From positions 13,576 to 77,575 of the forward strand of contig CAVWHY010000003.1 in NCBI GenBank assembly GCA_963754955.1: DNA of 64,000 bases, read 5' to 3'. The notes beneath the pieces were generated by a model, which was not told the DNA's origin, made no database searches, and saw only the letters and a program-made list of their open reading frames with translations. Origin of the DNA: an uncultured Acidobacteriota bacterium. Lineage in GTDB: Bacteria > Acidobacteriota > Vicinamibacteria > Vicinamibacterales > CAVVIG01. The stretch's first letter is position 1, and each line of letters opens with the position of its first letter. Shown here one piece after another: positions 23,843 through 62,358 of this stretch. Made by a program: the position numbers and the translations under genes.

Positions 23843-26800
23843 GTGACCGACTTCGTCCACCTTCACCTGCACACCGAGTTCTCACTACTCGACGGCGCGT
23901 GCCGCATCGACGAAGTGCTGGATCAGGCGGTGGCGCTGAAGATGCCGGCGATGGCGGTCACCGAGCACGGGAACATGTTCTCGTCGGTCATCTTCCACGA
24001 CCACGCGCGGCAGCGCGGCATCAACCCGATTCTGGGCTGCGAGGTGTACGTGGCGCCGGGCAGCCGGCTGAACAAGAACGGCAGCCCCGGCGAGACCGCC
24101 AATCATCTCGTCCTGCTGGCGGAAAACGCCGAGGGCTACCACAACCTGATCAAGCTCGTCTCGGCCGGGTACACCGAGGGCTTCTACTACAAGCCGCGCA
24201 TCGACAAGGAACTCCTCGCGCAGCACGCGAAGGGCCTCATCGGCTTGAGCAGCTGTCTCAAAGGCGAGGTTGCCGAAGGCCTGTCGCGCCAGCAGGAGCG
24301 CAAGGCCGTCGAAGCCGCGGGCGCGTATCGCGACATCCTCGGCCCGGGCAACTTCTTCCTGGAAATGCAGTGGCACGGCATCGAGGAGCAGCGCGTGGTC
24401 AACGGCGGCATGCCCGCCATCGCGCGCGATCTGAAGCTGCCGATGGTGTGCACCAACGACGTCCACTACCTGCGCGCGGGTGACGCGCATCCGCACGACG
24501 TGCTGCTCTGCATCGGAACCGGCAAGGCGTTCAGCGATCCCAAGCGCCTGCGCTACGACGCCAAGCAGTTCTTCCTGAAGACGGCCGACGAGATGGCCGA
24601 GGCGTTCAGGGATTTTCCCGATGCGCTGGCGAACACTGTGCGGATCGCGGAGCGGTGCAACGTCAAGCTGGGGGAGGGCGAGAACTTCCTGCCCAACTTC
24701 GACGTGCCCGCGCCGTTTACCCTGGACGACTACTTCGAGCACGTGACGCGCGAGGGATTCGCGGAGCGGCTGGTCCGGCTGAAACACCTCGCGTCCACCG
24801 GAGCGCTGCGGCACACGATCGACGAGTACGAGCGCCGCCTGGCGTACGAAATCGAGATGATCAAGAAGATGAAGTACCCGGGTACTTCCTGATCGTCTGG
24901 GATTTCATCCGCTACGCGCGCGAGCAGGACATCCCGGTCGGCCCCGGGCGCGGGTCGGCTGCGGGAAGCCTGGTCGCCTACTGCCTGCGCATCACCGACG
25001 TCGACCCGATCGACTTCGATTTGATCTTCGAGCGCTTCCTGAACCCCGAGCGTGTGTCGCTGCCGGATATCGACATCGACTTCTGCGAGCGCCGCCGCGG
25101 CGAGGTCATCGAGTACGTCACGCGCAAGTACGGCCGCGAGAACGTCGCCCAGATCATCACCTTCGGCACCATGAAGGCCAAGGCCGCGGTGAAGGACGTG
25201 GGCCGGGTGCTGGAGATCCCGTTCGCCGACGTCAACAAGGTGGCCAAGCTCATCCCGCCGGCCCTCGACATGACGCTGGACAAGGCACTCGAGGAAAGTC
25301 CGGCGCTCAAGGAGCTCGAGCAAAACGATCCGAAGGTCAAGGAACTGCTGAACGTCGCGAGGCGCCTCGAGGGCATGACCCGCCACGCGTCGGTGCACGC
25401 GGCCGGCGTGGTCATCGCGCCCAAGGCGATCACGGAGTACGCGCCGCTCTACAAAGGGGCGCGCGACGAAATCACGACGCAGTGGTCCATGAAGGAGATC
25501 GAGCGTATCGGGCTCCTCAAGATGGACTTCCTGGGTCTGAGCACGCTCACGCTCATCTACGACGCGATCGCCGAGATCAAACGGACTACGGGCGAAACGC
25601 TCGACATCGACCGCGTGCCCCTCGACGATGCGAAGACGTACCAGGTATTTCAGGACGGGGCGACCTACGGCATTTTTCAGTTCGAGAGCAGCGGCATGCG
25701 GGACATCCTGCGCAAGGCGAAGCCGCAGCGCCTCGAGGACTTGATCGCGCTCAACGCGCTCTACCGCCCCGGCCCGCTGCGCAGCGGCATGGTGGACGAC
25801 TTCATCGCGCGGAAGCAGGGCAAGACGGAGGTCAAGTACGAGCTGCCGCAGCTCGAGCCGATTCTGGCGGAAACCTACGGCGTCATCGCGTATCAGGAAC
25901 AGGTGATGCGCATCTCGAACGTCGTCGCGGGGTTCACGCTCGGAGAGGCGGACCTGCTCCGGAAGGCGATGGGCAAGAAGAACGCCGAAGTCATGGCCAA
26001 GATGCGCGGCAAGTTCGTGGACGGATCGAAGAAGCTCGGGACGCCCGAGAAAAAGGCCGCGCACCTGTTCGACCTGATGGAGCACTTCGCGGGGTACGGC
26101 TTCAACAAGTCGCACTCGACGGCGTACGCGTTTCTCGCGTACCAGACCGCGTACCTGAAGGCGAACTACCCGTGGCACTTTGCGGCCGCGCTGCTGACGA
26201 TCGAAGCCCAGAACACGGACAAACTCGCGCTGTATCTCGGTGAATGCCGGGACAGGGCCATTCCCGTCCTGCCGCCCGACGTCAACGAGAGCGAGCTGCG
26301 CTTCACGGTGACCCCCGCGGGCGTCCGTTTTGGCCTGACGGCCATCAAGAACGTCGGCGAGGGCGCGATCGAGTCGCTGCTGACCGTCCGCCGCGCGAAG
26401 GGCCCGATCAAGTCGCTTCAGGCGCTCTGCGAGGATCTCGATCTCCGCCTGTTCAACAAGCGCGTGTTCGAGAGCCTGGCCAAAGCCGGCGCGCTCGACT
26501 CTCTGGCCGGCGGCGTCACGGGACATCCGTGCGAGGTGAGGCCGCGGCTGGTGGCGGCGGTGGACGTCGCGTGCGAATACGGCGCGCGGCTGCAGCGCGA
26601 CAGGAACGAAGGGCAGGCCCAGTTGTTCGGCGGGGCAGACGAGAGCGACGCTCCGGCAGCCGATGGCCGGCTGCCCGAGGCGGCGCCGTGGAGCGAGAGC
26701 GAGCAGCTCGCGTTCGAAAAGGAAACACTGGGGTTGTACTGGAGCGGCCATCCGGCCGATCGCTACCGCGACGACCTGAAACAGTTTGGCGCCCGGTCTA

Positions 26801-27378
26801 CAGGCGATCTGGCGGAAGCGCCGACGACCGCGCGCGCTGACGGATGGGGGCCCGGCGGGCCCAAGCCCATCGAGCCGGATACGAGCGTCGGCGGCATCGT
26901 CGCCGCGTGCCGGCCGCTGAAGACGCGCAAGGGCGATTCGATGGCGGTCTTCACGCTCGAGGACGCCCAGGGCGGCGTGGAAGTCATCGTGTTTCCGGAG
27001 GCGTTCCAGCGGAGCGCCGGCCTCATTGAAACGGGCACGCTCGTCCTGGTGCGCGGCAAGCTCGAACGCGACGAGGAGTCGGTGCGCCTGCTCGCCTCGG
27101 AAATCCTCCCGCTCGACAGCCTGCGTGAGCGGCTGACCCGCGAGGTCGCGATCCGTGTCAAGATGCCGGCGGACCGTGGGGTGTTCGAGGCCCTGGGCGC
27201 AGTCTTTTCGCGGCATCGGGGCGATCGGCGCGTCTCGTTAGAGATCGAACTACCATCGGGAGCCACGCCCCTTCGCGTCCGCGCGGACGTCTCCCACCAG
27301 ATCCGGGTCCGCCCCTCCTCGACGCTGATCGCCGAGGTCGAAGAGATCGTCGGCCACGGGTCGGTGTCGCTCAAGTGA
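23843..27378 (+). CDS. dnaE: DNA polymerase III alpha subunit, one frame break (~24880)
   Basis: ORF 23843..24892 carries the PHP domain (VTDFVHLHLHTEFSLLDG) and ends ...KMKYPG. ORF 24655..27378 continues GYFLIVWDFIRYAREQDIPVGPGRGSAAGSLVAY... The span is 3536 nt = 3n+2. The junction is at the CCCGGG around 24877-24882 and behaves as a 1-nt deletion. Confidence 0.95.
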
Positions 27379-37285: not shown

Positions 37286-39061
37286 CCGGAATCGGGGTCT
37301 CGCCGGGCGTCGTGGCGGGCCGGGCCGTCATCCTCATTCAGCGCGAGCAGGTGCTGCGCTATCACGTGCCCGCCGCCCGCCTCGACCACGAGCTCGAACG
37401 GCTGCAGGCGAGCCGCGAGCGGGCCCGGCAGCAGCTGACGGGCATCCGCACCGGTGTCGCGGAGCGGCGCGGACCGGACATCGCGTCGATTTTCGACGCC
37501 CAGATCCTGATGCTGGACGATCCGATGCTGGTGCCGCGCGCCGCCGATCTCGTCCGCCAGCAGCGGGTCAACGCCGAGTGGGCGATCCAGCGCGTGTTCC
37601 AGGAATTCAGCGCCGTCTTCGACGAGATCGCGGATCCGTACCTGCGCGAGCGCAAGGGCGACGTGGCGGACCTCGTGGGCCGGCTGAAGATGAACCTGCG
37701 CCCCGGCATGGCGACGCCCCGGGACCTGCTTCGCGAACTCGACGAAGCCTCGGTGCTGATTGCCGACGAGTTGACCCCGTCCCTGGTCGCGCAGATCGAC
37801 TGGACGCGGGTGCGCGGCTTCGCCACCGACGCCGGCAGCCGCACGTACCACTCGGCCATCCTCGCGCGCTCGCTCGAGGTCCCGGCGGTCGTGGGACTCT
37901 ACGACGCGAGCCGCGTGATTCAGCCCGGTCAGCTCGTGGTGATCGACGGTTCGGCGAGCGAAGTGATCGTGGACCCGAGCGATGACGTGCTCGCACGGGC
38001 ATCCGGGCAGCGGGACGACCGCACCCCTGCTGCGGGCCCGGCGCACGAGCGGCGCGGCCCGGCCGTCACCGCAGACGGCGTTCGCATCCGGCTCGACGCG
38101 AACATCGAGTTTCCCGACGATCTGGCCGCAGCGCGGTATGCGGGGGCCGAAGGCATCGGGCTGTTCCGCTCGGAGTTCCTGCTGACGAGCGCGACACCCA
38201 CACCCGAGACCGCCGCCGCAGGCGGCGGTCTCGGCATCAGTGAGGATATCCAGTACGAGATCTACCGCGGCATGCTCGAAGGCATGGCGCCCGGACCGGT
38301 GACCGTGCGCACCTTCGACGTGGACGAAGACCAGCTGACGCGGCCGCTGGCCGACGGCTGGGTGGCGGACGCCGAACGGGCGGGCCGCCAGGGGCTTCGC
38401 GGGCTGCGCCTGAGCCTCGCGCGCCCGGAGCTGTTCCGCGTCCAGGTGCGCGCGCTGTTGCGGGCGGCGCGGCACGGCCAGCTTCGGATCATGTTTCCCT
38501 TCGTGTCGGGGGTGGAGCAGATCAGGGAGGGACGGCGGCTGGTGGACGAGGTCGCGGCCGAACTCGCCCGTGCCGGGCAGCCGCCGGCGCGCGTGCCGAT
38601 CGGCGTGATGATCGAGATTCCCGCGGCGGCCTACACGGCCGACCTCATTGCGCGCGAGGTCGACTTCTTCACCATCGGCACGAACGATCTCGATCCAGTA
38701 CTGCCTCGCCGTGGATCGCGCGGACGCGCGGGTGTCGGACATGTACGAGCCGCTGCACCCGGCCGTGCTGCGGATGATCGTGATGGCGCGGCGTGCCGCC
38801 ACACGCGCGCGGATCCCGGTGTCGCTCTGCGGAGAAATGGCGTCAGACCCGGCGCTGCTGACGCTGCTCGTCGGGCTCGGGCTCACGGATTTCAGCATGA
38901 CGCCGGCCGCGATCCCGACTGCCAGACAGGCGCTTGCGGAAATCCGCGCCGAGGATTTCCGGGCGCTCGCACGCCGTGTTATCGGCCTGCCGACCGCTCA
39001 CGACATCCAGCGTGAACTCGCCGCCGCGCTGGACGGGTTGGCGGCGGGGAGGAAGAACTAG
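37273..39061 (+). CDS. ptsI: phosphoenolpyruvate-protein phosphotransferase (PTS enzyme I), one frame break (~38692)
   Basis: ORF 37273..39015 has the phospho-His region (GSRTYHSAILARSLEVPAVVG) and ends ...FFTIGTNDL. ORF 38648..39061 continues IQYCLAVDRADARVSDMYEPLHPAVLRMI...CGEMA. The span is 1789 nt = 3n+1. Confidence 0.9.
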
Positions 39062-40167
39062 TGGACCGTCCTATTGAGTTGTACAGCGGTCATGCGATTC
39101 TCCGAGACGGGTCGGCATAGGCCCACCGAATGGGCGTCGCGGTCGTGTTGTAGTGCTTGATGTAGCGCATCAACTTGCGGCGGAGATCGGTGACCGATGT
39201 GAAGATGCCGCGTGCGGTGACATCGCGCTCGATCTTGGAGAACCAGAGCTCGACTTGGTTGAGCCACGACGAATACGTGGGCGTGTAATGCAGATGCACG
39301 TGTGGATGCGTCACCAAGAAGGTTCGGACCTGCTGCGTCTTGTGGGCCGAGAGATTGTCCACGATGATATGCATCTCGCGTCGGCGGGACTGCGTCTCGA
39401 CGACGGTCTGCAGGAAGCCGACGAATTCCGCGCTCGTGTGTCGGGCCGCGGTGTGGCCCACGACTTCGCCCGTCCGCGTGTTGAGCGCCGCATACAGCGA
39501 CAGCGTCCCATGCCGGTAGGTACTCGAAGCCGTGACGTTCGGCGCGGCCGGGCGACAACGGCAAGACCGGGTCGAGCCGATCGAGCGCTTGAATCGCCGT
39601 CTTCTCGTCGATGCAGAACACCACGGCGTGCTGCGGCGGATCGAGGTACAAGCCGATCACATCGGCGGCTTTCGTCTCGAACTCGGGATCAGTCGACCGC
39701 ATGTACCGCTCGAGTCGATGGGGCTGCAGGCCGGCGTGTCGCCAGGCCCGCGCGATAATCGTGTGTTGCACGCCCAGCTTGCGCCCGAGCGACCGTGTGG
39801 ACCAGTGCGTGGCGCCCTGCGGCGGCGGCCGTCGCGTCCACGTCATGATGCGCGCTTCCAAGGCGGGCGTCAGCACGGTCGGCTTCGAGCCCCGATGGCG
39901 GGCCGCCAAGCCGGCCAAGCCGTCCTTCGCGACGCGTTGCTTCCACAAGGCGATCGTCCGCGAACTGCATCCGGTCATCGTCGCAATCGAGGCGTAGCTG
40001 CAGCCGTCGGCGAGCAGCAGAATGACCCGCGCCCGTCGCGCGGCATCCGCGCGGCCGCGTCCCGATCGCACGCGCGCTTCGAGCTCGGTGCGTTGGTCGG
40101 CGGTCAGCACCAGCGATGTCGATGGCATGCGCCATCATACGATTTACAACTCGTTAGTACAAGCCAC
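39061..40167 (-). mobile_element. IS630-family insertion sequence (1107 bp) with TA target duplication
   Basis: Terminal inverted repeats are GTGGACCGTCCTATTGAGTTGTACAGC (left) and GTGGCTTGTACTAACGAGTTGTAAATC (right, reverse-complemented), 19/27 identical. TA is present at 39059-39060 and 40168-40169. One transposase gene inside. Confidence 0.8.
39090..40128 (-). CDS. IS630-family (Tc1/mariner-like DDE) transposase, one frame break (~39519)
   Basis: The N-terminal HTH part is in ORF 39058..40128 (...VVFCIDEKTAIQALDR...RAERHGFEY). The catalytic C-part is in ORF 39090..39461 (IIVDNLSAHKT...YTPTYSSWLNQVELWFSKIE). The span is 3n+1. Confidence 0.85.
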
Positions 40168-45699: not shown

Positions 45700-45895
45700 G
45701 ACTAGAGTTCCGGCCGTTCGCAAACGGGCCTCCGCGACATCGAGTTCGTGCGCCGCTGGGACAGCGCTGGGCCGGGGTGGGAGTTCCGGCGATTGCCCCG
45801 GGGCGGGGGAGCCCCAAGGTGTGCAAAACTGTAGCACGGTGTAAAAGAGCTGTCAAACCTATGTTACGATTGAACTTCTCGGTCTTTTTGCCCCC

Positions 45896-49645: not shown

Positions 49646-49775
49646 CGATAGGTCGGCGATAACCGGTCACGGCCGCGCTTGGGCGTCCGTCCAAGCTCAT
49701 CGAATCGTCAGATCCGTGGTTCACACGGCCGCCAACCCTGTTACAATCCTGCTCGTTCCCGCCCCCGGGCCCCTG

Positions 49776-50531
49776 ATGATCGTCGCGATAGCAAACCAGA
49801 AAGGCGGCGTCGGCAAGACGACGACCGCGATCAATCTCGCCGCGGCGCTGGCCATGCGGGGCAAGCGCACGCTGCTCATCGATCTGGACCCCCAGGCCAA
49901 CAGCACGATGTCGTTTCTCGACGTGGCGCCGGGGACGCGGAGCGTGTACGACGCCATCGCCGATCCGGCCGTGCCGCTCGCGGACGTGATCGTGCCGTCG
50001 CCCGTCGAAAATCTGTTCGTCGCGCCGTCCCGCATCGCCCTCGCCAAGCTCGAGGCGAAGCTGGTGGGGGAGATGGACGCGCATTTCCGGCTGAAGGACA
50101 AGCTCGAGCCGCTGCGCAAGACGTATCCGCAGGTCGTGATCGACTGTCCGCCGGCGCTGGGGCTGTTGACGGTGAATGCGCTCGTGGCGGCGACGCACCT
50201 GCTCATCCCGATTCAGTCGTCGTATTTCGCGCTCGAGGGCACGGACGACCTGCTCGAAACGATCGAGAAGGTCCGGGCGCGGCCCAACCCGGCGCTGCGC
50301 ATCCTCGGTGTCGTCATCACGATGCACGACAAGCGGACGGCGCTGGCGCGCGACATCCGGGCGCAGATCCAGAAGGTGTTCGGCGGCAAGGTCTTCAAGA
50401 CCGTCATCACCAAGAGCGTGCGCCTGGAGGAGAGCCCGGCGTACAAGGAGTCCATTTTCACCTTCGCGCCCGAGTCGGCCGGGGCGACGGAGTATTACCG
50501 CCTCTGCGAGGAGGTTATCGATCGTGCCTAG
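49776..50531 (+). CDS. parA: chromosome-partitioning ATPase ParA (Soj-type)
   Basis: Within ORF 49317..50531 from ATG 49776: MIVAIANQKGGVGKTTTAINLAAALA (deviant Walker A), LIDLDPQANST. Confidence 0.9.
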   Translation: MIVAIANQKGGVGKTTTAINLAAALAMRGKRTLLIDLDPQANSTMSFLDVAPGTRSVYDAIADPAVPLADVIVPSPVENLFVAPSRIALAKLEAKLVGEMDAHFRLKDKLEPLRKTYPQVVIDCPPALGLLTVNALVAATHLLIPIQSSYFALEGTDDLLETIEKVRARPNPALRILGVVITMHDKRTALARDIRAQIQKVFGGKVFKTVITKSVRLEESPAYKESIFTFAPESAGATEYYRLCEEVIDRA

Positions 50532-51345
50532 ACGAGGACTACCCGACTCGATCGCCATGCGCCACGACGAGCACTACGTGGAGGCGCTGGCGGCGTCCGC
50601 CGGCACGCCGGTCGGGCGCCTGATTCCCATCGATCTCATCGACCCCAATCCGAACCAGCCGCGGCAGGTCATGGGGGATCTGTCGGAGCTGATGGCCTCG
50701 ATTTCAGAAAAGGGGATCATCGAGCCGCTGGTCGTGCGGCCGCGCGGCGAGCGGTTTCAGATCGTGGCCGGCGAACGGCGCTATCAGGCGGCCGTGCAGC
50801 TCGGCCTCAAGGAACTGCCGGCCGTCATTCGCGACGTCGACGAAGCCGAGATGCTCGAGCTCGCGCTGATCGAGAACCTGCAGCGAAAAGACCTGACGCC
50901 GTTCGAAGAGGCCGAGGCGCTGCAGGGCCTGGCGGACGGGTGCCGGTATACGCACGAAGATCTGGCGCGGCGGCTGGGGAAGTCGCGGACGTCGATTACC
51001 GAGTCGCTGGCCCTGACGGCGATGCCCCAGGAGATCCGCCATCTGTGTCGGCTGGCCGACATTTCCTCCAAGTCGTTGCTATTGCAGGTGGTTAGGCAAG
51101 ATACGCCAGCGAAAATGACCGCTTTAATCGAGAAGATGACCAGCCAGGGCGGCGCGACCCGCCAGCAACTGCGTGACGCCGTGGCCAAGGCCAAGCCGGG
51201 CCGGCCAAAGGCGTATGTGTTTGCCTACCGACCGCCCACCAAGGCGTTCAACCTGAAGCTCTCGTTCTCGAAAAGCCGCGCGTCGAAGGACGACGTGATC
51301 GAGGCGCTCGAGGCGATTCTCAAAGAACTCCGCAAAACGAAATAG
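50524..51345 (+). CDS. parB: chromosome-partitioning protein ParB (Spo0J-type)
   Basis: Within ORF 50176..51345 from GTG 50524, overlapping the parA end. Motifs: IDLIDPNPNQPRQ, IIEPLVVRP, QIVAGERRYQAA (arginine patch / CTP-binding motif) and an HTH region. Confidence 0.9.
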   Translation: MPRRGLPDSIAMRHDEHYVEALAASAGTPVGRLIPIDLIDPNPNQPRQVMGDLSELMASISEKGIIEPLVVRPRGERFQIVAGERRYQAAVQLGLKELPAVIRDVDEAEMLELALIENLQRKDLTPFEEAEALQGLADGCRYTHEDLARRLGKSRTSITESLALTAMPQEIRHLCRLADISSKSLLLQVVRQDTPAKMTALIEKMTSQGGATRQQLRDAVAKAKPGRPKAYVFAYRPPTKAFNLKLSFSKSRASKDDVIEALEAILKELRKTK

Positions 51346-51542
51346 GCCGCGCTCGCCTGGCTGGTCCGGGGTAGTCGGCGTCGGCCAGGCTCCGGGAATT
51401 CGGAAAATCCGCGGTCTCTGGCGTCGCCGGGTTGAAGCGGTTCGTGGCGAGGCGGCGTCGTTGGATCGGGCGGTGGTAGCGGGCGGCAGCCGGCTCGGAT
51501 GCACGCCGGCTGGGAGTCTCGCGGGCCAGCCAAACTCCCATT

Positions 51543-51570
51543 AGTTAACATAATATCCATTATCGGACTC
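51543..51570 (-). other. dif: candidate dif site (XerC/XerD chromosome-dimer resolution site)
   Basis: The minus strand reads GAGTCCGATAA-TGGATA-TTATGTTAACT. E. coli dif is GGTGCGCATAA-TGTATA-TTATGTTAAAT. XerD arm 10/11, central region 5/6, XerC arm 6/11 with the inner ATAA conserved. Embedded in an AT-rich island (23 G+C in 63 nt, 51531-51593) in a convergent spacer. Confidence 0.6.
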
Positions 51571-51651
51571 ACGATATATCCCGAATGATTAGGCCCTGTG
51601 CATGCTTTGCGGATGCGTGTGTGCGGCACCCGCCCTAACGGCGGCTCGCCT

Positions 51652-53808
51652 TCACGCCTGCCAGTTGTCGCCGCTGAACGCCGTCGCCCGGCACGTCAAC
51701 CTGAATCGGCCGCTGCGCCGGATAGCGTTCCGCCTCCGGCGTACCGGGACCGACGGGCAGGCTGGCCGACACGAAGAAGCCCACCGATTCGCCGGCCTCC
51801 GCCTCGAGGTCCACCAGCGGGACCGCCACCTCCAGCACGGTGCCGGCCGCGACCCGGGCGCCGGGGACCGCTGGTCCCCGACCACGTGGCCCGGCCCGAC
51901 GGCTCTACCTCCAGGCGCTGCCGCGAGGGGTGCAGGAAGGTCAGCGAGAACCCGTGACCTTCCGCCATCAGGTCCGCGAGCCGGCGCTCGCCATCGAGGC
52001 GGACGAACAGGTGCGAGGCGCTGAAGCCGAACAGCACACGCGTGAGGATGCGCGGCACCGCGCCGGTCTGGTGCATGGCCCCCTGGTGCACCGGGATCTC
52101 GAAGGTGCCGGCGCCCAGCCATTCGAAGTAGCTCGTCGCCTCGCCGTCGATGGTCGGCGAGAGCCACGCCGAGGGCGGCTGTTCCTCCTGGATCGTCAGG
52201 GCCGCTGAGATGTTGCTGACGAAGAGCTCCTCCGGCACCGGCTGCTGCAGCAGGCGGTACACGTTCCGCAGGTGCCGCCGGAACAGGTCGTCGAACTCCG
52301 CGTCGTGATCCGACGAGTGGTCGTCCCCGTACCACCAGAACCAGTCGCTGCCTTCGGCGATGAGCAACTCCTCGCGGGCCTGCTCGACGGCGGTCGCCGG
52401 AGCGCCGGACGCGCGCTCGAGCGCCTCGCGGGCATCGCCCAGCTGGCTCCAGGCCATCTGGTCGTCCCGGTGGCCGATCCAGATGGAAAAGTTGGAATCG
52501 ATCCACGAACCGGGGAAAATCGATTCGATCGTGCCGGGGGCGGCGCCGGGCGTCGCGCATGCTTCCGCCATGGTCACCGTCCGGAGCTCGGGATGGGTGG
52601 CCAGTCGGCCGTACAGCGCCCGGAGAAAAGGGTGGCCGTTCGCCTCGAAATGCTCCCAGGCGTTCTCGCCATCCAGGATGACGGGCAGGAGGGCCTCTCC
52701 CCCGCTCGACGGCCGCGAAGCGCCGGCCGGCTTCCGCGAGCCGCGCGACAAAGTCGTCAGCGGCCGCGTCCGGATCCCAGCCGGCGTAGACGAACCCGAT
52801 GCGATCCGAGAGCACATGGTCGCGAAAGACGCAGGACACCGACGCGCCGCCGGCCCGGACGTCATAGGAGCGATAGAGCCGATCCGGCTGTTCGACGTGC
52901 CCGTACTGATCGCGCGTGAAGGTGAGCCCGATCGATCGCGCCAGGATCTGCTCGTCCGTCGCCATCCACGAAAAGCCGGCCCGCGCCACCAGCGGCACCA
53001 TCGCGTCCGACACGGATCCTTCAGAAGGCCACACGCCGACCGGCCGGCGTCCGAACAGACGCTCGTGGCACTCCACGGCCCGCCGGAGCTGAAGGTCCGC
53101 GTCCTGCGGGTGCTGAAATCGCCGGCGCGGCATCGCCGATCCCGGATGCGTCCGCAGGTAGACGTCCGTATCGCACAGGAGCGGCAGAATCGGGTGGTAG
53201 AAGGGCGACGTGGCGATCTCGATCTGGCCCCTCGCTGCGGCGTCTCGGTACTCCGGGATGACGCGGTTCAGGATCTCGAGCTCCACGGCCCGAAGCACCC
53301 CTTTGTCGTCCTCGGAGAAGGCGCGCCCCTTGTCGACCAGCCGCCGCACGCGTTCGTCGCCCGTCAGGTAGAACGGGTCGATCCAGGCGAGCTTCTGCCA
53401 GACCTGCAGATCGCGCAGGTCGTCGGTCGAGAACGGCGCGGACGCCGAGCGCCGTTCGAGCAGCTCGAGGTAGCGCGGGTAGATTTCGATCATGCGCCGG
53501 CGCTGCGCGTGAAAGAAGTTGGCGACGATGAACGTGGCTTCCGCCTCGGTGAGGAGCGCCGCCGGCTTGAGCCCGAGCTCGAGATACCGGTCGCGCGCGC
53601 GGTCGGCGGCGAAGGCTTCGAGTTGGACGAGCAGCGACGGTACCAGGTTGAAGGTGGCGCGAACAGCCGGGAACTCGCGCAGCAGCGCCACCATCCCGTA
53701 GTAGTCCTTCAGCGCATGCAGCCGCACCCACGGCATGATGTGCTCGCGGGTGACGAGGTCTTCGTAGAACGGCTGGTGCATGTGCCACAGGAGGGCGACG
53801 CGGGTCAT
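51652..53808 (-). CDS. glycoside hydrolase family 57 protein (alpha-amylase / alpha-glucan-processing type), about three frame breaks
   Basis: The N-terminus MTRVALLWHMHQPFYEDL...HALKDYYGM...SPFYHPILPLL is the GH57 catalytic core (ORF 51652..53808). It continues in ORF 51696..52865 (ILDGENAWEHF...GSDWFWWYGDDH), then ORF 51635..51838. Breaks lie near 52700, 51850-51900 and 51690. The exact 3' end is uncertain. Confidence 0.8.
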   Translation of the reverse strand: MTRVALLWHMHQPFYEDLVTREHIMPWVRLHALKDYYGMVALLREFPAVRATFNLVPSLLVQLEAFAADRARDRYLELGLKPAALLTEAEATFIVANFFHAQRRRMIEIYPRYLELLERRSASAPFSTDDLRDLQVWQKLAWIDPFYLTGDERVRRLVDKGRAFSEDDKGVLRAVELEILNRVIPEYRDAAARGQIEIATSPFYHPILPLLCDTDVYLRTHPGSAMPRRRFQHPQDADLQLRRAVECHERLFGRRPVGVWPSEGSVSDAMVPLVARAGFSWMATDEQILARSIGLTFTRDQYGHVEQPDRLYRSYDVRAGGASVSCVFRDHVLSDRIGFVYAGWDPDAAADDFVARLAEAGRRFAAVERGRGPPARHPGWRERLGAFRGERPPFSPGAVRPTGHPSRAPDGDHGGSMRDARRRPRHDRIDFPRFVDRFQLFHLDRPPGRPDGLEPAGRCPRGARARVRRSGDRRRAGPRGVAHRRRQRLVLVVRGRPLVGSRRGVRRPVPAAPAERVPPAAAAGAGGALRQQHLSGPDDPGGTAALGVALADHRRRGDELLRMAGRRHLRDPGAPGGHAPDRRGAAHPHACAVRLQRLAPVRPPRWRAPARGPDGGRSRVLADLPAPLAAAPGGRAVGPGHVVGDQRSPAPGSRPAPCWRWRSRWWTSRRRPANRWASSCRPACPSVPVRRRRNAIRRSGRFRLTCRATAFSGDNWQA

Positions 53809-59208: not shown

Positions 59209-60105
59209 TCAGGGCCGCGGGTGGAAGCGGTCGTAGACCGCCCGCAGCCGCGCTTCGAGGATGTGCGTGTAGATCTGGGTCGTCGAGAGGTCCGCGTGCC
59301 CCAGCATCATCTGGATGGCGCGCAGATCGGCGCCCCGCTCGAGCAGATGCGTGGCGAACGAATGGCGCACCACGTGCGGGCTGAGCATGCGCGGCAGTCC
59401 CGCCTTTTTTCCGTAGCCCTTCAAGATCTTCCAGAACCCGACGCGGCTCAACGGCCCGCCGCGGGCGTTGACGAACAGCCGCGGCGTCGTCCGGCCCCCG
59501 GTCTTCTGGCGCCGGATGAGCCCGGGACGCGCGTCCGACTGATACCGCCGGATCCACGCGGATGCCTGGTCGCCGATCGGGATCAGCCGTTCCTTGTTGC
59601 CCTTGCCGATGCAGGTCAGGTAGTGCTCGTCGAGGTGAAGATCCGCGTCGCGGACGCCGACGAGCTCGGAGACGCGCATGCCGGTCGCATAGAGCAACTC
59701 GATCAGCGCGCGGTCGCGGAGTCCGAGCGGCGTCGACGTGTCCGGCTGCGCCAGGAGGGTGTCCACGTCCTCCACGGACAGGAACTTCGGCAGCGCAGGC
59801 CATGCCGGTGGCGGCTGCAAATCCTCGGCAGGACTGCGGGCAAGTCGCCGATCCAGGACGAGAAACCGGTAGAAGCCGCGTACGGCGGCCACGGCCCGCG
59901 CGACCGACCGCGGCGACTGGCCGCGCCCGCGCTGGTGCTGCACGAACGCGTCGAGCGCCCGGCGGTCGAGGTCCTCGAGATTCCGGTGCGACGTGTCGGC
60001 AAACGCCGCCAGCGCCGCCAGGTCGCGACCGTAGCTCTCGAGGGTGTGGCCCGACAGGCGCCGCTCGACGCGGAGATGATCAAGGTAGGCGGCGATCAGG
60101 CTCAC
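59209..60105 (-). CDS. xerD: site-specific tyrosine recombinase, XerD (XerC/XerD family)
   Basis: 298 aa: [23 protein letters not shown], ...[11 protein letters not shown]..., [39 protein letters not shown]. The assignment to XerD rather than XerC is by overall resemblance only. Confidence 0.8.
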
Positions 60106-61097: not shown

Positions 61098-62358
61098 GTG
61101 TCACGCCCGTTCCTCCGCCTCACGACACGCGTGCTGTGCGTCCTGGCGCTTGCCTGCGCCGTTCTGGTTTCGGTCCGCGCCGCGCAGGCCGGCGGCACGG
61201 CAGCCCCGCCGTCAACGCGAAGCGACGAAGTGCGGGCACTCTGGGTGGTTCGCACGAGCCTCACCTCGCCGGCAGTCGTGGACGAAATCGTGGCGTCTGC
61301 GAAGGCCAGCGGGTTCAACACGCTGCTCGTGCAGGTCCGGGGTCGCGGCGACGCGTACTACCTCGGCGGCTCTGAGCCGCGTCCACCCGCGCTGCTCTCG
61401 CAACCGGAATTCGATCCGCTGGCCAGAGCGCTTTCCGCCGCACACAACGCGGGGATTGCCGTCCACGCCTGGATCAACGTCAACCTCGTCTCGGGCACGG
61501 ACCTCCCGGCAGGCCGGAATCATATTGCCTACCGCCACCCCGAGTGGCTGATGGTGCCTCGCTCGCTCGGCGAGGATTTCGCGACGCTCGATCCCACCGG
61601 GCCCGGAATATCTCGGGCGGCTGATTCGATTCGCCCGCAACCAGCCTTCAGTGCTCGAGGGCCTCTACCTCTCGCCGGTCGCGCCCGGCGCCGTGGAGTA
61701 CACGAAGCTCGTCGTGCGCGAGATCGTGCAGCGCTACGCGGTGGACGGCGTCCACCTGGACTACGTTCGCTACCCGACCGACCAGTTCGACTACAGCCGC
61801 GACACGCTGGCGGCGTTTCGCCGTTCGATCCTTCCAGACCTCGGCGACGCCGATCGGGGCCGCTACGAGACACGTGCCGAAGCGGAACCACTGCTCTACA
61901 CCCGCGCGTTTCCCGAGCGCTGGCGTGCTTTCCGTATCGATCACCTGACGAACCTGCTGACGCAGCTGCGTGAGACCGTGCGGGCCGCGCGTCCGGGTGC
62001 CGTCGTCAGCGCCGCGGTCGTGCCCGACCCTATGGAGGCCGCCGGCCAGCGGCTGCAGGACTGGCCAGGATGGCTCGCGAAAGGCCTGATCGACGTCGTC
62101 TGCCCCATGGCGTCTACGACTGACAGCGTCGCGTTCGCCGCGCAGATCGCGGCTGCGCGCGAGGCCGCAGGACGCCATCCGCTCTGGGTGGGCATCGGCG
62201 CCTCCTCGCTCTCGCACGAGCAAATCATGGACGACATCGTGGCGGCGCGGCGGATTGGCGCGGGAGGCGTCGGCCTCCTCTCGTACGACAGCCTCACCGC
62301 GCCGGCCCGCGGATCGGGATATCTCAGCCGGCTCGGCAAGGCGGCGTTCAGCTTTTAG
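61098..62358 (+). CDS. glycoside-hydrolase-like GHL10 (YngK/DUF187-type) lipoprotein, one frame break (~61600)
   Basis: ORF 61098..61973 (signal peptide, VRALWVVRTSL..., GFNTLLVQVRGRGDAYY) continues in ORF 61651..62358 (VDGVHLDYVRYP...). The span is 3n+1. Confidence 0.6.

Follow-up and report, generated by a model that had tools for sequence, protein, structure and literature searches.

Is a 28-bp sequence in the spacer between parB and a convergent GH57 glycoside hydrolase gene the site (dif) at which chromosome dimers are resolved in an acidobacterium, and does it mark the replication terminus? The question arose from an earlier note on a 64,000-nt stretch of DNA (hereafter the window, meaning the whole 64-kb stretch that was analysed), in which a dif-like XerC/XerD recombination site was described at 51543–51570. 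Read directly from the window, minus-strand positions 51570 through 51543 are GAGTCCGATAA-TGGATA-TTATGTTAACT (full 28-mer, GAGTCCGATAATGGATATTATGTTAACT), as that note gave it. The layout is the 11-6-11 arrangement of dif: two imperfectly inverted 11-bp arms, a putative XerC-binding arm (GAGTCCGATAA; 51560–51570, minus strand) and a putative XerD-binding arm (TTATGTTAACT; 51543–51553, minus strand), flank a 6-bp centre (TGGATA; 51554–51559, minus strand) that is the expected region of strand exchange, and the column conservation among relatives (see below) agrees with this division. The spacer measures 306 nt between the stop of parB (51345) and that of GH57 (51652), the length previously reported. 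The count of 23 G+C in the 63 nt at 51531–51593 is also correct and is the lowest 63-nt count in the window, with values of 25–26 G+C in patches at 45826, 15853, and 40138.

The 28-mer is present in a single copy in the 64-kb window, even with three mismatches allowed, and shuffled sequences are expected to contain none. A pattern restricted to the arms (ATAA-N6-TTATGTTAANT) likewise has one match in the window at two mismatches, with zero expected by chance. Two score matrices were applied, one constructed from four dif sequences independent of the window (the textbook Escherichia coli site and three sites from Table S1 of Kono et al., 2011; PMC3025954) and the other from 119 dif-type sites of other genomes. 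The site scores 40.2 bits with the first matrix and 47.5 bits with the second. With the first matrix, the next independent match in the window reaches 14.2 bits; with the second, all others are negative. Neither matrix detects a second dif-like site in the 64 kb.

The E. coli dif site (GGTGCGCATAA-TGTATA-TTATGTTAAAT) has the same 11-6-11 layout. The match counts previously given for it are accurate: 10/11 in the XerD arm, 5/6 in the centre, and 6/11 in the XerC arm, of which the inner ATAA is kept in the window site and the outer part differs. As in other dif sites, a highly conserved XerD arm (TTATGTTAAAT in E. coli) is combined here with a XerC arm that is conserved to a lesser degree and has ATAA at its inner end. 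The window site differs from that of E. coli in its neighbours, which are parAB and not the Tus/Ter region, in a lineage-specific 15-nt motif that accompanies it, and in its orientation to the flanking genes, which flips among relatives. Within the same phylum, dif sites have been predicted in three Acidobacteria (Kono et al., 2011; PMC3025954, Table S1). The site of the Acidobacteria bacterium Ellin345 (ATGTCCGATAACAGATATTATGTTAACT, at 2,622,908 bp of the record) agrees with the window site at 11/11 positions of the XerD arm and 9/11 positions of the XerC arm (GTCCGATAA in common), and that of Solibacter usitatus (ACTTCCGATAACGAATATTATGTCAACT, at 4,815,082 bp of the record) is also close (PMC3025954, Table S1). 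These published sites come from a class other than that of the window (Vicinamibacteria) and have a different centre. Because the predictions of Kono et al. (2011; Table S1) include Acidobacteria, the site is a dif of an already described kind, located in a Vicinamibacterales-like chromosome (from Vicinamibacterales or a close relative). The resemblance of the CCGATAAT half to actinobacterial dif sequences, which the earlier note had pointed out, proved to be right: actinobacterial sites such as that of Catenulispora (TTGCCCGATAATGTACATTATGTAAAGT; Kono et al., 2011; PMC3025954, Table S1) carry CCGATAAT in the XerC half, as does the window site. Their XerD arm ends in GTAAAGT or GTCAAGT, whereas that of the window ends in GTTAACT.

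The site is retained in relatives. A metagenome scan with ParB yielded 80 loci in which ParB is 80–98% identical, and the site lies 20–1022 nt after parB in 45 of these. The remaining 35 lack it, and in only six of them (L128, L129, L134, L135, L168, and L199) does the sequence extend at least 400 nt past the stop of parB. About 45 related loci from soil metagenomes and metagenome-assembled genomes (MAGs) of Vicinamibacterales bear the site, in one copy each, just 3′ of parB, an adjacency that is kept in relatives. In an alignment of 50 distinct related sequences, columns 3–11 of the XerC arm read GTC[C/T]GATAA, invariant save for the C/T alternation at column 6, and the XerD arm core TTATGTTAA (columns 18–26) is present in 50/50. 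Two columns of the centre are constrained, 16 (invariant) and 12 (constant in 45/50), and columns 13–15 and 17 vary freely (relatives have TGGATG, TGTATG, TAGGTG, CCAATG, CTAATG, and others). Fixed arms around a free centre are expected for a pair of protein-binding arms surrounding a crossover region that needs only to match its sister copy. The aligned sequences show that purifying selection acts on the site, and that it does so with the contrast of arms and centre known from Xer sites.

These observations bear on the simplest alternative, that a dif-like sequence occurs in an AT-rich spacer by chance. The short length of the motif is the single point in its favour; zero matches are expected in shuffles, and dozens of diverged relatives keep the site while the surrounding intergenic DNA no longer aligns. 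Given this conservation, chance resemblance is excluded for practical purposes.

A wider scan, with one genome per species, found the pattern CCGATAAT-N4-ATTATGTTAA in at least 120 genomes belonging to Sphingomonadales, Actinomycetes, Bacillota, Bacteroidota, Acidobacteriota, and others, with one match per locus. Positions left unfixed in the pattern are also conserved, e.g., the final T, which indicates that it picks out the general dif family. Among the matches listed, the closest is in a Vicinamibacterales MAG (L040), in which both arms are identical to those of the window and the centre differs. The order recN–miaB–bifunctional nuclease (BFN)–parA–parB–site–lptFG is shared by this MAG and the window, with approximately 70–75% nucleotide identity in the genes, and a blastn comparison of the intergenic DNA aligns only the 30-bp site (93% identity). 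The order parA–parB–site–lptFG is found also in three more distant MAGs in which ParB is approximately 44% identical, two of Thermoanaerobaculia and one unclassified acidobacterial (L093, L111, and L117), and a Terriglobia MAG has miaB–BFN–site without parAB. A homologue search with the Terriglobia bifunctional nuclease returned no closed acidobacterial genome, all matches being metagenome or MAG contigs of at most 361 kb. The miaB–BFN–parA–parB–dif–lptFG block is conserved in Vicinamibacterales, and at least two classes of the phylum have parAB next to dif. As far as could be checked, this parAB–dif linkage is unreported; neither it nor the 15-nt companion motif is described by Kono et al. 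(2011; PMC3025954).

The three more distant MAGs have flank sequences of their own in common. A palindrome, GCCTTAAT-N2-3-ATTAAGGC, lies between parB and dif, 15–35 nt outside the XerD arm, and CCACGCCAAT is located directly outside the XerC arm. The flanks of dif are thus conserved in these genomes too, in a manner different from that in Vicinamibacterales.

A xerD gene (59209–60105, minus strand; 298 amino acids) is located 7.6 kb from the site, as had been noted, and encodes the recombinase expected on the right arm. The protein scores 354.4 bits with the XerD equivalog model TIGR02225 (cutoff, 329.6), and the XerC model stays below its own cutoff. Its best match in the PDB is E. coli XerD (1A0P; E = 4e-62), with which the regions of the catalytic motifs align. 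The synteny of xerD is also kept in relatives. Neither a xerC nor an ftsK gene is present in the 64-kb window. Syntenic retention, the combination of fixed arms with a variable centre, the match to a published acidobacterial dif, and the nearby XerD equivalog strongly support the proposal of the earlier note that this is a genuine XerC/XerD dif-type site, and from these sequence features it very probably functions as the chromosomal dif.

The mechanism of Xer recombination in E. coli is established and is summarized, for example, in PMC9226527. By analogy with it, the site would be the chromosome dimer resolution site of an acidobacterial chromosome. When homologous recombination joins sister chromosomes into a dimer, two copies of dif would meet at the division septum, each with XerC on the left arm (GAGTCCGATAA) and XerD on the right arm (TTATGTTAACT). 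XerD, activated by FtsK, would then carry out the first strand exchange within the 6-bp centre TGGATA; the Holliday junction formed in this way would be resolved by XerC, and monomers would be restored. The assignment of XerC to the left arm and XerD to the right presumably follows that of E. coli; in the same scheme, recombination would depend on FtsK, XerC would be present in the organism, and each genome would have one site.

The orientation of the site is not fixed. In five relatives (L169, L185, L190, L195, and L200), dif lies on the parB strand and not, as in the window, on the opposite one, so that it is inverted relative to parB, and in the inverted loci long enough to show it (L185, L190, and L195), the order and orientation of GH57 and lptFG are as in the window. 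In L190, approximately 1 kb of non-coding DNA separates parB and dif, and no convincing open reading frame (ORF) was found in this extra segment. These inversions are informative about a second alternative, namely that the sequence merely resembles dif and is instead an operator, a terminator of parB or GH57, another transcript element, or a ParB-related site. The spacer of convergent genes is where terminators are expected, and an inverted repeat is present at 51511–51540, just outside the XerD arm; however, a strand-specific transcript element would not tolerate inversion of the site between unchanged flanking genes. In addition, the match to dif covers the two arms and keeps the 11-6-11 spacing of such sites (40–47 bits), and fixed arms with a free centre indicate a recombination site, not a hairpin. 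No Rfam family matches within 50800–52300, neither a sigma-70-like promoter nor an intrinsic terminator is found in 51200–51800, and no parS-like palindrome was detected. A non-Xer element is therefore highly improbable.

On the XerC side, the dif site of this lineage has a companion. The 15-nt motif CAAAGCATGCACAGG (consensus CAAACCATSMACAGG; 51595–51609, minus strand) is located exactly 24 nt outside the XerC arm, separated from it by a spacer (51571–51594, minus strand) that, in the alignment of related loci, is fixed in length and variable in sequence. In 504 kb comprising the window, the ParB-recovered loci L121–L200, and L040, all 22 occurrences of the motif with at most one mismatch are placed at exactly 24 nt from the XerC arm, with none elsewhere. 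The motif spans positions −39 to −25 relative to that arm (L121–L200 and L040), and when up to three mismatches are allowed, two loci have an offset of −38 and the others keep −39. It is a single-copy sequence in the window, is missing from about one-third of loci (e.g., L124, L181, L191, L193, and L196), and is inverted together with dif in L190. On the XerC side, conservation comprises this motif and the constant length of the 24-nt spacer, and is gradually lost at distances greater than about 45 nt.

Several functions were considered for the motif. It is kept in L040 and in L158 and L159, which lack GH57, and so is not simply a GH57 terminator. No consensus RNA structure was found in the conserved flank, nor any conserved hairpin within the 24-nt spacer (mean z = −0.5), and the motif is accounted for by no Rfam family, promoter, or terminator. 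When the flank consensus was inspected by eye, neither a sigma-54 promoter nor an IHF site stood out convincingly. The core of the motif, ATCCACA, resembles a DnaA box when the motif is parsed as CAAACC-ATCCACA-GG, and a perfect TTATCCACA is present in two loci. Given its rigid 24-nt distance to the XerC arm, this lineage-specific motif is probably the target of an additional binding factor. To our knowledge, textbook chromosomal dif sites have no such motif next to the XerC arm, a point against the chromosomal dif reading, and we know of accessory control of Xer recombination for plasmid sites only. The companion motif is, as far as could be checked, unreported.

The window is chromosomal. 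The parA–parB operon (49716–51345, plus strand; parA 49716–50531, parB 50557–51345; Pfam/NCBIfam) provides, with its 3′ end, the conserved left neighbour of dif, and the GH57 gene (51652–53808, minus strand; Pfam PF03065) is its right neighbour in the window. Housekeeping genes in the window include those for an AcrB-type efflux system, mutS, guaA, dnaE, accA, recJ, lptB, rpoN, and hprK, as well as rapZ, ptsI, the tol-pal cluster, recN, and miaB. After miaB, the order is the bifunctional nuclease gene, parA, parB, the site, GH57 (minus strand), an lptF/G fusion, metK, and xerD. GH57 is present in most close relatives and missing in L040, L158, and L159, as well as in L093, L111, and L117, where dif is followed directly by lptFG. 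Its presence or absence beside the site is accompanied by no second dif-like sequence.

Three irregularities were observed elsewhere in the window. The dnaE gene is split into two frames (ORFs 23843–24892 and 24655–27378) with a break at approximately 24870–24895, and the conserved DnaE motif KYPGYFLIVWDFI reads ccgggtacttcctg, as if GGT TAC were short of one T; the break is probably an indel error of the assembly, which suggests a long-read assembly. A gene resembling GHL10-family glycosyl hydrolases is split in a similar way (61098–61973 and 61651–62358, plus strand; Pfam model positions 2–112 and 127–289), a second apparent frameshift. Between ptsI and the tol-pal cluster, an ORF on the minus strand (39058–40128), in a patch of lower G+C content (~0.64), contains HTH_32, HTH_29, and HTH_23 matches typical of the N-termini of IS-family transposases, and is possibly an insertion sequence.

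A further alternative accepts a functional Xer site and gives it another main role, either multimer resolution of the plasmid type (cer/psi-like, FtsK-independent, and associated with parAB) or attachment of a mobile element. In the plasmid sites cer and psi, an accessory region of approximately 180 bp binds PepA with ArgR or ArcA. The window site is similar to these in having conserved extra sequence on the XerC-arm side of the core, at a fixed distance and where cer and psi hold their accessory sequences, and a parA–parB operon directly adjoins it, the ParA of which also matches plasmid RepA/ParA models. Unlike cer and psi, it is chromosomal and has a single 15-nt motif, so that the conserved flank extends over 15 nt as opposed to about 180 nt, with no ArgR- or ArcA-type box recognized; the context is one of housekeeping genes, and XerC-side conservation is limited to the motif and its spacer. 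The presence or absence of GH57 right beside the site speaks for such a role, but this indel lies beyond the motif and not at the crossover region, and an integrated element would leave a second dif-like site, of which there is none in the 64 kb. The flanks consist of the chromosomal genes tol-pal, recN, miaB, lptFG, metK, dnaE, and rpoN, and synteny reaches another acidobacterial class.

The same arm pattern, GTCYGATAA-N6-TTATGTTAAC, occurs in more than 120 putative viral contigs (L201–L320; IMG/VR), in several of which it lies within approximately 150 nt of the end of the locus. Although this distribution favours a role in mobile elements, all of these contigs lack synteny with the window. 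An IMEX attachment site was rejected on the same grounds, as a second, degenerate dif-like site is not present in the window and no viral contig is syntenic. A site with such another main role is thus improbable, and the integration or resolution site that the earlier note offered as its alternative is disfavoured by the lack of a second site, the housekeeping flanks, and the synteny that extends into another class. The chromosomal dif reading is retained below.

In most bacteria, parAB is usually located near oriC and not near the terminus, and the neighbourhood of the site is therefore atypical for a terminus. With parAB adjacent, an oriC region was considered and rejected: the window has no DnaA-box cluster, parS, dnaA, or dnaN, and the GC skew has a maximum here, not a minimum. 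A single near-match to the DnaA box TTATCCACA is found in the 64 kb, where 2.1 are expected. No parS sequence with two or fewer mismatches is present in the 64-kb window, from which the partition operon appears to be situated away from its centromere sites; a literature search for parS in Acidobacteria gave nothing useful. One tentative model, which we consider rather unlikely as a whole, is that the dif of Vicinamibacterales is a composite module, in which the companion motif would bind an accessory factor (DnaA or another protein) that controls or positions Xer recombination, and parAB would be anchored beside dif, remote from parS. If this model is true, the location of parAB beside dif implies either that a partition operon lies at the terminus or that partition is functionally linked to the resolution of dimers.

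The earlier note further proposed that the replication terminus lies within the window if the site is genuine. The absence of dnaA, dnaN, a DnaA-box cluster, and parS from the 64 kb speaks for this location. The cumulative GC skew has its maximum, and the skew in 500-nt steps its best single change-point, at 51,500, with a mean of +0.026 to the left and −0.008 to the right. The difference between the two sides, specified a priori, is significant (Welch p = 0.004) and remains when coding strand is included in a regression (t = 2.7). Of 14 related loci, 13 have the higher skew on the parB side; these loci are syntenic with the window and are therefore not independent tests. The change-point is marginal when any breakpoint is allowed (permutation p = 0.06), and the skew of the right flank averages about zero and is not clearly negative. 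Third-codon skew split by coding strand does not flip (+0.026 versus +0.027), the right side comprising just 12.4 kb. A search for strand-skewed 6- to 8-mers (KOPS-like) revealed no clear polar motif in the window and is underpowered with a right side of this length. Three Acidobacteria have GC skew index (GCSI) values of only 0.03–0.08, a range in which skew is hardly or not at all visible by the authors' classification (Kono et al., 2011; PMC3025954, Table S1), and GC skew is thus a weak test in this phylum. A location of the site at the replication terminus is consistent with these data and is plausible, somewhat more likely than not.

With this site, dif is annotated for a group of very abundant, poorly studied soil bacteria, at a position that no protein-gene caller would report. 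It provides a probable landmark of the terminus in a phylum whose weak GC skew does not allow the terminus to be located. The rigid spacing of the companion motif is a hint that accessory factors may control Xer recombination at a chromosomal site. The linkage of parAB to dif, conserved in at least two classes, runs counter to the usual placement of parAB near the origin. If the location at the terminus is true, this arrangement would raise questions about how chromosome segregation is organized in these bacteria.
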